NCBI GenBank assembly: GCA_047284725.1
Contig: JBJBEO010000001.1
Location: 320,001 to 384,000 of the forward strand
From: Synechococcus sp.
GTDB lineage: Bacteria > Cyanobacteriota > Cyanobacteriia > PCC-6307 > Cyanobiaceae
Direction: 5' to 3'
Length of the DNA stretch: 64,000 nucleotides
The notes beneath the pieces were generated by a model. That model had not been told where the DNA came from and did not search any database. It saw only the letters and a program-made list of their open reading frames with translations. The translations under genes and the position numbers were made by a program. Positions 10,215-62,885 of the stretch are shown here, in pieces (positions within the stretch are counted from its first letter, which is position 1; the number at the start of each line of letters is the position of its first letter).

Positions 10215-10823
10215 CTACCAGCCCAGTGCTGAGAGCGTTCGCTGCCCGTCTTGCTTGGTGGGCGGCGGTGTTGTGTTCACCTCGGGTTTCTCCTCGCTCG
10301 TCCGGCATTCAACGCAGTAGGATGCGTTGTTGGACAGCCCTTGCACGGTGCTGGAGCGCACCCGAACGTCGTTGTTCACGAAGCTGAAGCGCTCCCAGAC
10401 CGTCATCGTTTCGTAGCTGGTTTCGAGAATCAGACCGTTGGTTGCGTCCATCGTGAACAGGGAGGATGCTGGCGCTTTTTCGGCATACCCCATGGTGCGC
10501 AGGAGCAGGCCGGACCGGCCGTCGTCGCTGGTGGGAATGAGACCAAAGAAGGTTTCCCCGTCGTGACCGTCTTCGCTCTGGTCCCAGGCCATCGATGCGC
10601 TCCAGCGCACGAAGCTGCCACCCACCACCTTGGCGGGGTCTTGACCATGGGTGATGGCCAGCTCCTGGAGGCGGGGATCGGCGCGCTCCAGGTCATCGAC
10701 CACGATCAAAGAGCCTCCGGCCTCGGCCCGACGATGGAGGAGATGATGAACACTGCGCAGCGACCGCCAGCGACCGCAGCTGTGTTGAAAAAAGCTGAGG
10801 GCATCGGGAATGTCGAGGTTCAT
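10215..10823 (-). CDS. cpcS: CpcS/CpeS-family phycobiliprotein lyase
   Basis: FFQHSCGRWRSLRSVHHL, GLLLRTMGYAEK, WERFSF; adjacent to cpcG. Confidence 0.85.
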   Translation of the reverse strand: MNLDIPDALSFFQHSCGRWRSLRSVHHLLHRRAEAGGSLIVVDDLERADPRLQELAITHGQDPAKVVGGSFVRWSASMAWDQSEDGHDGETFFGLIPTSDDGRSGLLLRTMGYAEKAPASSLFTMDATNGLILETSYETMTVWERFSFVNNDVRVRSSTVQGLSNNASYCVECRTSEEKPEVNTTPPPTKQDGQRTLSALGW

Positions 10824-43463: not shown

Positions 43464-43533
43464 CGCTCTGCGTTGACGGTTTTCCCTCGCCAAGTGCGTG
43501 TGCTCCGGTTCACCACTGCTGTCAGAATGGCAA

Positions 43534-43808
43534 GGTCCGGTTTCGGCCGGACTAGGTGATCCACACCGGTGTTTCGGACAGCGGTTCGATTCCGCTCAGC
43601 TCCATTTCCCCTTTTCTGGGGCTGCAATGGTTTCGACGGGGCATAAGGAGGGTGACTGAAGCCTGCTCGGTAAGAGCAAACCCGTAACAGCGAACAACAT
43701 CGTTCGTTTCTCCCGTCAAGCAGCCCCTGTTGCTGCCTGACCCAATAAGGGAGATGGGGTGAGGTCAGCCTTATCACCCAATTGACTCATGGGGGCTGGA
43801 AGGCCCCT
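43534..43808 (+). ncRNA. ssrA: Circularly permuted (two-piece) tmRNA
   Basis: T-arm/acceptor 3' end (gcggttcgattccgctcagctcca, ends 43604) precedes the usual 5' end ggggctgcaatggtttcgacgggg (43618); tag ORF 43690-43740 ANNIVRFSRQAAPVAA*; outer ends approximate. Confidence 0.95.
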
Positions 43809-43854
43809 TCAATACTGACAACTCGGCACTTACGTCAACACCAAGAAATAGGGG

Positions 43855-43875
43855 TGTTGCCAAAACTGTTGCCAA
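43855..43875 (+). repeat. Tandem 9-bp direct repeat, probable integrase arm-type binding sites
   Basis: tgttgccaa-aac-tgttgccaa between tmRNA and integrase start. Confidence 0.55.
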
Positions 43876-43897
43876 CGTTCCTTTCGTCTTCTCGGGC

Positions 43898-44856
43898 ATG
43901 GATAAGGCGGAGGCCCTGGCCTACGTCAGCCGCTTGTTTGATGCGGCAGCAGCCGGCGCCGTTCTCTGGGGGGACAAGCTCCTCCTGAAGCGATTCCTTG
44001 AGCAGTGCTCGCGCACTGGCTCCCAGGAGACCAAGGACGGCTATCGGCGAGAGCTGCAGCACTTCACCCGCTGGCGTGACCAGAATCACCCACACATGCA
44101 CCTGAGGGAACTCGATCCCGCGCTGGTGGATGACTGGGTGTCCCGACTGCGGGAACAAGTGAAGGCGGGCGAACTCAAGCCCCGCTCGTTCAACCGGCGG
44201 GTCAGCGCGGTGAGCGCCCTCTACCGATGGGCGTCGGAGCCTACGCGAGCAGCTGTGACAGGAGTGCCGCGCAACCCAATCCCCCGAAGAACAGGAATGT
44301 CGGCACCAAAGTTGGCCAAACCGCTGGCTGAGTCGGATCTGACATCAGTTCTCGGAGTTATCAGTGCCGCGAAGGTAAAGGGGTCAGCCATCGCAGCGCG
44401 GGACTACGTCATGGTCCGCGGTTCCTACCTGCTGGGCTGCCGGGTGTCCGAGCTGTGCCGGCTGCGCTGGGAGGACCTCGAACCGCTGGGTGAAGGCGGC
44501 AACGTACGGCTGCTGGGTAAGGGGAGTAAGCCCCGCACCATCCATGTCAGCGCGGCGACGCTGGAGCTGTTCAAGTCGTTGGGCCGCGGCAAACCCGAAG
44601 AGTGGCTGTTCCCTTCCAATAGGAGGAATGGCCCATTGACCCGACAGGCGGTGGCCGCTCGCATGGCGATGTGGGGCCGGGAAGCAAACGTCCGGCTCTA
44701 TCCGCACCGTTGCCGCCATACCCACGCCACTCATGCCATCAGGAGAGGAGTTGATGTCTTCACGCTTCAAGCAACCCTCGGACACAGTTCACTGGCACGA
44801 CAGGCCATTACGTTGCTGCTGAGCCTGGCGACAGTTTTTCTTTGCGGCTGGGCTAA
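43898..44856 (+). pseudogene. XerC/D-like tyrosine integrase with a frameshift just before the catalytic Tyr
   Basis: ETKDGYRREL, LLGCRVSEL, GKGSKPR, PHRCRHTHATH, LGHSS; expected tail TTGHYVAAEPGDSFSLRLG* lies in another frame from ~44797. Confidence 0.85.
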
Positions 44857-44935
44857 TGGAAGGTTTCATTTCTGACACTTCATTGGTTTAGTAGTGAGTT
44901 TCGTAAGCAGAGTTGCGCTAAGTCGTTTTTAATAA

Positions 44936-44994
44936 CGATTGTAATAAAAAAGGGGGACGGTTATTCACCAGCCCCCCTTTTTTTATTACAATCG
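44936..44994. terminator. Long inverted repeat, bidirectional terminator
   Basis: cgattgtaataaaaaaggggg ... ccccccttttttt-attacaatcg between convergent genes. Confidence 0.75.
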
Positions 44995-45200
44995 CAGGGC
45001 ACCCCCACACTGCCAATTTAGCAATATGCTGCTCTGATTATTGGGTCTCCAGGACTTATATGGCCCTGCTTTGATGGTTGTCTTCGTGCCTGTGACTATC
45101 TGCCAGGGTGCGTCCTGGGTCCCGCTGCACGCACGCGGCGGAACATAAGCCTGGGACTACGGGGTGACTAGCCGAGTGACCAATGCCTGGTGTGTCTGAA

Positions 45201-59144: not shown

Positions 59145-59225
59145 AGTGACTGATTGAAGCCATGATCATTGTGCTGCAGAGCTTCCTCTCCCTTCTTATT
59201 CGATTACTCTTTGCCGTCGATACCA

Positions 59226-59515
59226 ATGCTCAGAAAGTTACTGCGTGAACAATGGATTCTTGGATTAGCACTCGCTATTGCTGCGCTTTATTTCGCCCTG
59301 ATCGTGATGCGTCCGTCGGGTGAAGCCCCTTCAGAAAGTTAAACCTGCTCGCACTCTGGGCCTATGGGAGCCCTACGGCATTTGTTCTGGGATTATTCAG
59401 TCTCTGGCGCGCAAACAAGACAACCGAGGGGTTGAAACACCTGGCGGTCGTGATCGGAAGCCTCGGGGTTAGCTTCCCAGTCGTTGCCATGCTGCTGATC
59501 AGAACCAAGTCGTAA
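59226..59515 (+). pseudogene. Three-TM small membrane protein with frameshift at C4 59326-59329
   Basis: MLRKLLREQWILGLALAIAALYFALIVMRPSGEA / FRKLNLLALWAYGSPTAFVLGLFSLW...AMLLIRTKS*. Confidence 0.5.
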
Positions 59516-60017
59516 GCGTCAGGCAAGAATTTGCTTGGCGCGTGACAGCGTCTCGGCAGAGCTTTGGCTTCTGTTAGCGCAACTTTGTATCGACGGCACC
59601 GGATGCACCGGTGGAGATTGCTGCGGGTGACCTGCTGTTGCTGCTGCGATCAGCGCTCAAGGGGATCGGTTGATCGCTGCGCAGGAGAGCACCAGCCCCT
59701 GGTTCAAGAGGCAAGTGCTCTATGGGGCCCCGTGCAGTGAAGCCCCACCAGCGGATTCAACTCCCGACCCATGAGGAATCGACACCCCTAGGTGGGGACA
59801 TTGATCGTGCTGAGGTTTGCATTCCCTTGGCCCTAGATTCTCCAGAGGCGCAAAAAGGCCCCTGTCTTGCGGGGGCGTTGCAGATTAAGTTCGGGCAAGG
59901 GCAGTTAACTGAGCATCCCAGCCGCATAAGCGACAACATCAGAAATCAGCAGAGCAAAAAGCACAGAAATAATCAGACAGCAAATAGCTTATATATCTAT
60001 TAGTTGTTCTAACGGAG

Positions 60018-60257
60018 TCATAGGCGAGTTGAGCTTACTTCTTGCACCCAGTCACAAGAAATTCCGGCCTTTTGATGGTGCTGGTGAACTGCTTTAGCGC
60101 TGGGAGCATTCAGGATGCAGTAAATACGATCATCTTCTTCGCTGTACAGGATATCGTGATGAGTAACCCCAAACTCGTCTGCAGGTGCATTCTGAAGAGA
60201 GTTGAGTTGATCTGCGGTAAAAGGCTTCATCGGATGAACATCAAGAAACATTGGCAT
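60018..60257 (-). CDS. DUF4242 (SCO4226-like His-rich metal-binding) protein
   Basis: MFLDVH, RIYCILNAPSAKAVHQHHQKAGISCDWVQEV. Confidence 0.8.
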   Translation of the reverse strand: MPMFLDVHPMKPFTADQLNSLQNAPADEFGVTHHDILYSEEDDRIYCILNAPSAKAVHQHHQKAGISCDWVQEVSSTRL

Positions 60258-60686
60258 CTCTCTATTTAGCAGCTAACTTTATTGTTGCCGGTGCCTTTGG
60301 CCCATGCATCAGCACAAGTCACTAGGCTTCACTATTCTCATTTAATTTTCAGTAACACTACTGTCGTTCGTTCAGCAGCTGCCCTTCCCCCTGCTTCAAA
60401 GGGTGTTGATCAGGCAGCTCGGTTGTCTATTGCATCATCACGAGATGCAAACCGGTAGATCTACCAGTTGCAATGCACTTAGTGGACATTTAGAATGAAT
60501 ACAGACGCCTACAGAACCGCGTCCTGAAGACGAGGTTTGGCGCCAGGGCGGGTAACTCCCGCCCTTCTTCATGGCAGAGCAACTCACCGGAGTGATTCGC
60601 ACGCTTCTCCGTCTCCATCCTCATCAGGCTTCGTTGGTTGCCCACCAACACTGCCATGTTTGCTGGGGCGATGCAGGATGGACACG

Positions 60687-61166
60687 CTATGGATTGACTG
60701 TCAGTTTTGCCGCAAAAAATCCGTGTACATATTTTTTGTAAATGCCTTGCAAGATTTTATTGTATAAAGTGAAATGAAAGTCTGATTCAGCCACTAAAAT
60801 CTCCTTTAATAGCGATCCTACTTCAGGAATTGGATCCTTCTGGTGAACTTCAAGAGCGGCACAGATCTTCTGTGTGAGGGGTTGAATGCGATAGTCTTGA
60901 TCGTGCTCTGAAATGATGTCGTTAAGCTCGCAGAGCAAATAAATAATGGCACCCTCGTTGATCAGTGCTTCATTCAGGTCTAGGCCTTCGTTTCCTTTCT
61001 CTCGCACTTCGGTGGCCAGGAAATTAAAACCATCAAATTCATTTTGATTGAGGTATATGGTTTGATCATTGGTGATGCCTCCTTCATCGAGAAGGTGGTA
61101 GTAAAGCAACAGCACATTGGCCATTGCTTTGTTGCCAATTTCGTAATTTGTGTGATCTATGATCAT
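60687..61166 (-). CDS. Hypothetical acidic protein, probable integron cassette ORF 2
   Basis: 159 aa AT-rich ORF starting ~24 nt after the attC-like site at 61190-61288. Confidence 0.7.
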   Translation of the reverse strand: MIIDHTNYEIGNKAMANVLLLYYHLLDEGGITNDQTIYLNQNEFDGFNFLATEVREKGNEGLDLNEALINEGAIIYLLCELNDIISEHDQDYRIQPLTQKICAALEVHQKDPIPEVGSLLKEILVAESDFHFTLYNKILQGIYKKYVHGFFAAKLTVNP

Positions 61167-61189
61167 TGTGATTCATTTGTATTCATCAA

Positions 61190-61288
61190 ACTCAATGCAG
61201 CCATCAGGTGGGCCGGTCGGTTCAGTTGGCCCAGCGGACGAAGCCTGACAATGATAGTTTCCCAGCCTTACTGGCAGCTTTGTTAGGC
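61190..61288 (-). other. attC-like recombination site 2 (R' apparently mutated GTT>ATT)
   Basis: Minus strand GCCTAAC-aaagct-GCCAGTAAGG-c-TGGG...CCCA-CCTGATGGC-tgc-ATTGAGT: R'' box, paired arms with unpaired bases. Confidence 0.6.
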
Positions 61289-61311
61289 GGCATGGTTCTC
61301 AAGCAGATTAG

Positions 61312-61929
61312 TTAGTGAATCCTCTTCCATTCTTCAATGGGGGCGATCTTGCTGCTGCACTCCTGGAGCCTGGCCTCCGCAAGAGTAAATTCGTCATTTT
61401 TAAATATGTATTCATAGTAGTATCCGCAGTCTCCGGGGCCTCGAAACTTTTTCAGATTGATCAGTCGTCTTGTCTCGCGATTAAACGCCGGAAAGCTGCC
61501 AGAGATCGTTGCTACAGTCTGCTCTCGAAATTTTCCATTTTCCTCTTGTACAATCTCCGTCAGCTGAAGTCGTTTCGCGGTCAGACGTTTTTCATCACGT
61601 ACTTTCACAAAGAAGAGCTCACTTAGGGTCCAATAGGGGCCTAGCCAGCAGTGGACAAACACGATGTATTCTGAATCTCCTACTGGATGAAGTGTTAAGC
61701 CGCTCCAGTCTCGGCTTGGATAGTCAGCTTGTTTCTGGAAGCCTGTTTCGCACTCGGTGGACCAATGCAAAACATTTCGCCATGCTTCTCTGTCTCCAAA
61801 CTTAGGAGTGAGGTTGTCGAACCTGATACCTGACGGAGATGGTGCATCGTTCACGCTCGCCTTTGAAACAGGCACTGAGACGATTGCGCACAGGGTCATG
61901 ACGACTAATGAGAAATAGATTCTGTTCAT
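61312..61929 (-). CDS. DUF1176-like secreted protein, probable integron cassette ORF 1
   Basis: Signal peptide, VHCWLGPY, KFRGPGDCGYYYEY...FTLAEAR..EC; ATG 12 nt after GTTAGCC. Confidence 0.7.
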   Translation of the reverse strand: MNRIYFSLVVMTLCAIVSVPVSKASVNDAPSPSGIRFDNLTPKFGDREAWRNVLHWSTECETGFQKQADYPSRDWSGLTLHPVGDSEYIVFVHCWLGPYWTLSELFFVKVRDEKRLTAKRLQLTEIVQEENGKFREQTVATISGSFPAFNRETRRLINLKKFRGPGDCGYYYEYIFKNDEFTLAEARLQECSSKIAPIEEWKRIH

Positions 61930-61941
61930 CGGTGCTTTGCC

Positions 61942-62086
61942 GGCTAACAGTATTTAGGCGGTCTACAGAAGCTGCTGCAAGATGATTTTTGCTGCATAAG
62001 CTGCCAATAGCTTGTCTCTCCTCGACGATCTCTATAGGTTTAGCAACGACTTCGGTAGATCTCCACTTCATTGTGGATTGTTATGC
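61942..62086 (-). other. attC-like recombination site 1
   Basis: Minus strand GCATAAC-aatcc...ATGAAGTGG-aga-TCTACcGAAGtcGTTGC...GCAGCagCTTCtGTAGA-CCGCCTAAAT-act-GTTAGCC: long imperfect palindrome bounded by ...TAAC and GTTAG.. Confidence 0.7.
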
Positions 62087-62108
62087 AATCCGAAGAACAT
62101 TTTTGACC

Positions 62109-62885
62109 TCAATGGAGGTCTGCGGGGCTCAGCACCCCTGATGGCCCTCGATTCATGACATGGGTGTAGATGGCCGTGGTCTTCACATCACTGTGACCAA
62201 GCAATTCCTGAATAGTGCCGATGTCTGAGCCCTGCTCCAGCAAGTGCGTGGCGAATGAATGGCAACACGCACGGCACGCTGCACAAGGCTCGCATCCAGG
62301 TGATGCCTGCCTTCAAGATGGTGTTGTGGATCGCGGCAGCGTCGGCTCTGTGGGAACAGCCATTGCCAGCTCCATTTCCTTGGTGCATGTGGATCTTTCC
62401 TGTCCAGCGCTTGTGGTAACTCCACGGCTCCCCAGCCAGCCGCGAGATCAGACTGGTGAAAACGTTTCACGCTGTGCAGGTGCTGTTTCGAAGGCTCCAC
62501 CAGGCTGGACGGCAGCACATGAGCCGATCCTTGTTGGCCCAGCACAGCACCCACTTCCGCCACCGTAAGTACAACAGAAGGTTCTTCCTCTTGCGGGCCC
62601 GGATCACCACCTCCAGGTTTCCTACATCCTTCCCAAGAACCGTGCGATAGAGAATCAGCAAGGCCGCCAGGTCTTGGTTCTGCGTGGAGGTGCTCATCCG
62701 CTCCTGCGTAGCCAGGTGACTCAAGAAAGCGTTGAGCTCTGCGTCCCCCAACGCATGGGTGGAAACGCAGGAACCGTCGCGCCCACTGCCCATCGGTTGG
62801 AGATCTTTGGTCTGGCGTGGTGGCGCACCTGCAGTTTCTCCCAGTAGCGCTGAATCAGGGCTGGTGGATGGTTCGGGCTGGTCAT
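62109..62885 (-). pseudogene. intI: Integron integrase, decayed (frameshifts and internal deletions)
   Basis: Fragments across frames: PPALIQRYWEKLQVRHHAR / QWARRFLRFH / LGDAELNAFLSHLA..STSTQNQDLAALLILYR / [43 protein letters not shown] (IntI-specific insertion) / [48 protein letters not shown]. Confidence 0.92.

Follow-up and report, generated by a model that had tools for sequence, protein, structure and literature searches.

A broken integrase gene lies near the end of a 64,000-nt stretch of a Synechococcus sp. genome (contig JBJBEO010000001.1 of assembly GCA_047284725.1, positions 320,001 to 384,000; hereafter the window, in whose coordinates features are given unless a genome position or a locus is named), and two open reading frames (ORF1 and ORF2) follow it on the same strand. 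Integrons are gene-capture devices best known for their part in antibiotic resistance, and most of them are chromosomal and environmental. Are the dead gene and its followers what is left of one, and did the genes behind it arrive as cassettes? A sequence-only reading of 60687-62885 had proposed that they did: an integron integrase (intI) relic followed by two attC-bounded cassettes in a rare 'inverted' arrangement, now frozen. All the sequence features it claimed lie where it placed them, and their interpretation changes in part. We put the probability at about 0.75 that this locus is what remains of an inverted-type sedentary chromosomal integron, made up of an intI pseudogene, a well-preserved attI site, a first cassette whose attC is mutated and a second that is truncated.

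The integrase relic itself is plain. The minus strand at 62109-62885 carries tyrosine recombinase pieces spread over three frames, in which Pfam detects the N-terminal SAM-like domain (Phage_int_SAM_4, E 5.7e-11) and the catalytic domain (Phage_integrase, E 1e-07). Three pieces match the integron integrase family TIGR02249 at profile positions 39-98, 157-270 and 244-313; the broken state of the gene keeps each at 47-86.8 bits, under the cut-off of 265 bits. The translation includes the stretch ...LPQALDRK...WSWQWLFP..., which we take to be the IntI-specific extra segment. The DNA of the relic aligns over 773 bases, at 77% identity, with a second intI of the same genome (genome 1157595-1158530), which scores 457.7 bits against TIGR02249 and whose sole interruption is one in-frame TAA. 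Relative to this copy, the relic shows deletions of about 13, about 134 and 49 nt, besides several single-base indels or frameshifts. Pfam, the TIGR02249 pieces and the DNA alignment together identify 62109-62885 (minus strand) as an intI pseudogene, as had been proposed from its scattered frames. A third intI fragment (genome 1158731-1159021) lies just upstream of the second integron's intI, and none of the three intI remnants that the TIGR02249 search found in this genome is uninterrupted. Since the other two copies are also broken, the array can no longer change, and its description as frozen stands. The relic has a GC content of 58-60% and the ORF2 DNA one of 42-46%, the cassette region as a whole being low in GC.

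What follows the relic is better read differently from before. The relic's stop codon, TGA, is at 62111-62109; 22 bases further on, GCATAAC (62086-62080) opens an element of 145 bases that closes with GTTAGCC (61948-61942), and the ATG of ORF1 stands 12 bases beyond that. This spacing is exactly as first described; the description of the element as an attC is what failed. We compared the sequence past the intI stop codon in 16 loci of related genomes and at both intI-linked sites of this genome. GTTAG is reached 165-175 nt past the stop codon in most of the 16 loci and at both sites of this genome; the stretch mostly ends in ...CCGCC(G/T)AAATACTGTTAG or a variant of it, and similarity between genomes fades beyond this GTTAG-type end. 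Window positions 62108-61942 align along their length with the post-stop regions of nine relatives' loci and with three other copies in this genome. The landmarks of the aligned region are a 5' box (ttcggattGCATAAC), a central motif (CTTATGCAGC) and a 3' core (CCGCCTAAATACTGTTAG, 61961-61944). The 5' box reads GGTTCTCGGAYCCGCC-KAAG in relatives and ttcttcggattGCATAAC in the window, while the central CTTATGC-GC and the 3' core are common to both, the 3' end in the window differing from the relatives' 18-base core by one mismatch. Over both strands of the 2.58-Mb genome, the relatives' 18-mer occurs at no more than one mismatch in three places only (window 61944-61961, genome 1156659 and genome 1754605), and at no more than three mismatches in a fourth, which adjoins the second intI. 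Pairwise homology among these copies also stops at GTTAG. Judged by position and homology, the 145-bp element is therefore better read as attI, the docking site of the integron, belonging to an attI region at 61942-62108 (minus strand) that adjoins intI and ends in a putative GTT crossover, which probably falls as G|TT between 61948 and 61947.

Could the element nonetheless be an attC, either an ORF-less first cassette or a first boundary, so that the locus would read attC-ORF-attC-ORF behind intI with no separate attI? Its ends, GCATAAC and GTTAGCC, do resemble R'' and R' boxes, inverted repeats lie inside it (fold z -2.24 against shuffled sequence on the plus strand), and two more copies occur away from intI, one of them in mid-array at a position like that of a cassette site. 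On the cassette strand, however, its fold z is -0.52. The corresponding 5' box of relatives reads GCCTAAG, GCCGAAG or GCATAAA; GCATAAC is part of a box that in relatives has no AAC core and hence is not an R'' box. Moreover, the two boxes are direct, not inverted, repeats of a GGAYCCGCC-KAA motif. Two attC covariance models, R1 from relatives' sites and R2 from loci with ORF2 homologues, match the element only trivially, over 18 nt, at 5.3 and 5.1 bits, and at the mid-array copy the R'' flank and cassette start agree at 2/5 positions by inspection, against at least 4/5 in 37 of 42 true cassettes. We consider an attC here quite improbable and retain the reading as attI.

Directly past the attI lies the first of the two putative cassettes. 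ORF1 (61312-61929, minus strand, 205 aa) begins 12 bases beyond the GTTAGCC of attI and has a partial match to DUF1176 (PF06674; E 1.1e-09, 38.7 bits for a cut-off of 34.8, profile positions 193-315 of 322), with an N-terminus that by inspection resembles a signal peptide. A promoter scan returned no promoter-like site on the minus strand, which is weak evidence either way; the cassette genes would presumably be expressed by read-through from upstream. A second site opens 24 nt past the ORF1 stop codon with a consensus-perfect R'' box, GCCTAAC (61288-61282). In its context (ccGCCTAAC) this box could pair with the cassette start, GTTAGCCgg, at 8/9 positions and at 4/5 of the variable ones. In 42 consecutive site pairs of relatives, the match between a cassette start and its own R'' flank is 5/5 in 30, 4/5 in seven, 3/5 in three and 2/5 in two, so that the start of cassette 1 pairs with its own flank as cassette starts do.

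The remainder of the second site also has the outline of an attC. The R'' box is followed by a spacer AAA, stems of 7, 5 and 4 bp, a loop of about 50 nt, L', a spacer ATTGA and an R' box GTTTGAT, which departs once from GTTRRRY; two extrahelical bases (G and C) on the 5' arm give the stem the pattern 7-1-5-1-4. The attC sites of relatives open with R'' CTAAC and one base; stems of 7, 6 and 4-5 bp follow, interrupted on the 5' arm by two single extrahelical bases, and after a variable loop comes GC-GTTAG. A test of this stem architecture was passed by 4 of 3710 TAAC sites genome-wide, the second site included, by 31 of the 57 model-supported attC sites of relatives and by none of 76 TAAC sites from control loci. 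Cassette 1 would then extend over 61192-61947 (minus strand), with TTAGCC as its start and the G of the degenerate R' box as its last base, its limits following from the attI crossover and the second-site R' and enclosing ORF1, with a candidate attC at 61186-61288 (minus strand) recognized by R'' box, stem pattern and complementarity of start and flank. Because both covariance models miss it, this site can at best be a decayed, mutated attC.

The case for cassette 2 comes from the relatives of its gene. ORF2 (60687-61166, minus strand, 159 aa) has 73 homologues at E<=0.001, with identity of up to 69%, and among those with a name marine gammaproteobacteria predominate: Oleispira, Ketobacter, Vibrio nigripulchritudo, Ectopseudomonas alcaliphila and Thiodiazotropha. 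Pfam, NCBIfam and a protein atlas yielded nothing on its function. Among 16 homologue loci examined, R1 places an attC at or within 25 nt of the end of the homologous ORF in six, all from Pseudomonadota (L039, L042, L044, L051 and L054 at E<1e-4, L040 at E 0.052). ORF2 is thus a member of a protein family that integron cassettes carry in Pseudomonadota, mostly marine gammaproteobacteria. The prediction that cassette-gene homologues would be flanked by attC elsewhere accordingly came true for ORF2; for ORF1 it did not, as a set of 5.8 billion proteins returned, among 93 candidates, ORF1 itself and no relative. In L040 the homologue ends ...CCA TAA inside its R'' box, CCATAAC, and the cassette starts GTTATGG. 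At the equivalent place the window reads ...CCA TAG C, so that CCATAGC (60686-60692, minus strand), which overlaps the ORF2 stop codon, may be an R'' remnant. A 50-nt mini-site beginning there (60692-60643, CCATAGC...GTTGGTG) is reported by neither attC model. A hairpin past ORF2 (arms 60610-60621 and 60675-60686) was tried as a third attC and rejected, one arm lying in a duplicated segment; it is probably fortuitous, because homology to that segment begins within its 3' arm.

These arguments must be set against what the covariance models did not find. Hairpins of the form TAAC...GTTA, sought without regard to strand in 16 intI loci, supplied the relatives' sites; 27 of these went into R1, one site of opposite orientation (in L035) being left out. 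R2 was built from 21 attC matches in six ORF2-homologue loci, five of them gammaproteobacterial by record title and one, labelled Pseudomonadota, supplying 9 of the 21. In a search of the whole window neither model has a match at E<10 within 60.6-62.1 kb, and the best window matches of R1 and R2 (E 0.18-1) fall outside both proposed sites. The expectation that attC models would recognize the two sites was thus disappointed. R2 does find three attC sites elsewhere in the genome, at L008 8924-8995 (E 1.3e-6), L007 9719-9799 (E 3e-3) and L007 10911-11012 (E 5.6e-3). Since the models detect attC in this genome, their failure to do so in the window speaks for decay, or for absence. A ranking by energy of 243 TAAC...GTTA pairs genome-wide was dropped, as it did not separate attC from the GC-rich background.

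Several further observations weigh against an integron with cassettes at this locus. R1 gives the second site 2.9 bits and R2 has no full-length match to it; R2 prefers an alternative short pairing, GCCTAAC...GTCAGGC (61288-61243), at 2.3-4.1 bits, the scores for this pairing overall being 2.3-4.5 bits. The fold energy of the second site is no better than that of shuffled sequence (z -0.76). The architecture test was widened after the site had been seen (5-bp middle stem, spacers of 0-5 nt, up to two mismatches), which limits its weight. For cassette 2, the start matches the R'' flank at no more than 1/5 positions by inspection, which is short of the complementarity expected of a cassette, and 10 of the 16 ORF2-homologue loci have no model-supported attC beside the gene. 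As for attI, an nhmmer profile of the relatives' attI regions, run genome-wide, did not return the window copy at E<10, and found only the copy at 1754 kb (L008; E 0.057); a blastn search with the 145-bp element against the 16 relatives' intI loci had no match, which is adverse or neutral, so that the alignment and the 18-mer alone bring out the homology.

Another account is that there are no cassettes at all: the neighbors of a dead integrase gene would be ordinary genes of an island, one of them followed by chance by a hairpin, the second site. Both models are silent at either site, the fold energies of the second site and, on the cassette strand, of the 145-bp element lie within the shuffled range, ORF1 has no known cassette relatives, and the region from 57 to 64 kb is strain-specific flexible DNA with duplicated segments, all of which would suit such an account. 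It leaves unexplained, however, why the attI ends in GTTAG exactly 12 nt ahead of the ORF1 ATG on a strand with no promoter-like site (weak in itself), why R'' consensus, stem pattern and boundary complementarity coincide at the second site, and why ORF2 has relatives that are cassette genes, with CCATAGC positionally equivalent to their R''. The genome's second intI, furthermore, has the same order of intI and then cassettes, there with model-supported attC. We judge the account without cassettes improbable, and it is likely that the genes were acquired as integron cassettes, as originally proposed, on the strength of the ORF2 family, the boundary complementarity, and the R'' consensus with its stem pattern. 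The claim made for the second site holds in part: it has the R'' box, the 8/9 flank match and a candidate stem with extrahelical bases, but it is not an attC that either covariance model detects, and on the cassette strand neither it nor the 145-bp element folds outside the shuffled range.

The layout of the locus is clear, and it is the usual one in this cyanobacterial family (Cyanobiaceae). Of 151 family genomes sampled, this one counted, 37 (about a quarter) have a TIGR02249 match that scores over the cut-off. R1 was searched over ten downstream and ten upstream loci of ten intI genes (285 kb, of which upstream about 140 kb). At E<=0.01 it had 30 matches in downstream loci, 15 of them outside the training set, and none upstream; all 30 are on the intI strand. 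The longest ORF with an ATG start lies on the intI strand in 34 of 41 segments between attC sites and on the opposite strand in seven, four of which belong to one genome of the same genus. That genome (G109) has six near-identical attC sites of 100-102 nt at L021 3528-7650, and in this array, unlike most others, the longest ORF runs opposite to intI in four of five segments between sites. At L035 2659-2750, an attC-like site right after attI is reversed with respect to the rest (R1 minus-strand match, E 6.4e-9). In the window, intI is co-oriented with the cassettes, which lie downstream of it, as in the inverted group. This part of the sequence-only reading is confirmed; its view that the inverted layout is rare does not apply within the family.

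Taken together, these results suggest how the locus may have come about. An IntI encoded at 62885-62109 would have bound the attI region directly 3' of its own stop codon, and, by recombining it with the folded attC of each circular cassette, would have inserted the cassettes at the G|TT of GTTAG. Cassette 1, with a secreted-looking DUF1176-like protein and a mutated attC, and cassette 2 would be the two remaining insertions. The attC of cassette 2 may have lost its AAC core, and a duplication or rearrangement at about 60625 would have removed what was left of it. The integrase gene would then have decayed through frameshifts and three deletions, of which the one of about 134 nt probably held the first catalytic arginine.

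The array ends in duplicated DNA. A blastn search within the genome showed that the segment at 59680-60625 is 90% identical to genome 781827-782781, and since the DNA below 60625 is this copy, the array is cut there. The extent first given to the array is therefore right as to two ORFs co-oriented behind intI, and is corrected in that a duplicated segment shortens the array at about 60625. Segments of 59211-60625 are repeated elsewhere in the genome at 73-92% identity (at about 422, 539-552 and 777-790 kb); the repeats include an ORF for an SCO4226-like nickel-binding protein (60018-60257, minus strand), and the same interval holds the 5' end of a plus-strand gene cut at about 60625.

The surroundings have the look of a strain-specific island. 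At the DNA level, 57-64 kb has no match in nine of ten genomes of the same genus and one 58-nt match in the tenth, and the match of the window to relatives' integron loci is confined to the intI parts. Neither ORF1 nor ORF2 has a match in the 150 other family genomes, and these absences, with the low GC, count in favor of a foreign origin. An Rfam scan of the window gave a tmRNA and one tRNA, and no family of attC type. The tmRNA, at 43519-43807, is of cyanobacterial type, and with the size (2.58 Mb in a single contig) and base composition of the genome it points to a picocyanobacterium. Past it come a weak match to tyrosine recombinases (44693-44797, plus strand) and, at 44939-44991, a strong AT-rich hairpin, weakly matched by both attC models (E 0.67-1). 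An island integrated at the tmRNA gene may have its edge in the interval 43519-45003.

The attI also recurs elsewhere. Two further near-full copies, whose homology starts 11-14 nt ahead of the 5' box and ends at GTTAG, have no intI remnant adjoining them. One is in the second integron (L007 7700-12620, genome C1:1153700-1158620), in which the intI with its single in-frame TAA is followed by a short form of attI and by co-oriented low-GC ORFs, presumably lipoprotein-like, HNH-like and others; this array has two model-supported attC sites, and the full attI copy stands in its middle at about 10650-10810. The other is in an island with type I restriction-modification and Mrr genes (L008 6470-6625 and 6644-8995, genome C1:1754470-1756995), where the attI copy is followed by a 758-aa ORF, which we take to be a KAP-family NTPase, and then by the attC that R2 finds at E 1.3e-6; the cassette start here, GTTAGATTC, matches its own R'' flank at 9/9 positions. 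A speculative and rather doubtful thought is that the attI element of about 160 nt is itself mobile, or can be reused as a cassette-type site, in picocyanobacterial integrons. Were attI carried to new places in this way, an integron could seed insertion platforms without its integrase.

By itself the locus adds little, being a decayed example of a layout known from Treponema and a marine Synechococcus. The wider result is more useful: the frequency of the integrase in the family, a conserved attI past its stop codon, and arrays of well-structured attC sites. In addition, the identity of up to 69% between ORF2 and marine gammaproteobacterial proteins, some of them cassette-borne, suggests an exchange of integron cassettes across distant phyla, for the most part in marine settings. 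A full-text literature search, whose coverage did not extend to subscription journals, found no paper devoted to picocyanobacterial integrons.

The closest known systems are those of the inverted group. According to PMC3607928, the intI of the Treponema integron is read towards attI, and the IntI of a marine Synechococcus sp. clusters with those of Treponema, Kuenenia, Chlorobium and Blastopirellula. PMC4889954 names an 'inverted integron-integrase group', finds it paraphyletic and lists Cyanobacteria among the integron-bearing phyla; a Synechococcus sp. IntI is also listed in the supplementary legends of PMC3108266. The window shares the intI-towards-attI layout of the Treponema denticola chromosomal integron and of the marine Synechococcus sp. 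described in PMC3607928, but here the integrase is a pseudogene, one to two cassettes are left and the attC is decayed. The phylogenetic placement with the Treponema group belongs to the 'Synechococcus sp.' cited in PMC3607928, and not to the present sequence.

Nearer in descent, the picocyanobacterial integrons at L021-L036 have the same attI after the intI stop codon, the same GTTAG crossover and the same co-orientation as the window. Their attC sites are 60-104 nt long, with a 7-1-6-1-4 stem and two extrahelical bases; their intI is uninterrupted and they hold up to 10 model-supported attC in about 12 kb, whereas the window sites no longer score with their model. Among 279 CALIN elements, Cury et al. 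2016 (PMC4889954) found 15 with an intI pseudogene nearby, and the window likewise has a cassette remnant beside a recognizable intI pseudogene. By definition, however, a CALIN element needs at least two model-detected attC sites (PMC4889954); the window has none and would probably not be called by that pipeline. Finally, the delta-attI-type gene cassettes of mobile integrons, as presented in PMC12901181, are from class 1 resistance integrons; there, attI-like copies stand at cassette positions away from the integrase, which resembles the two extra copies in this genome.

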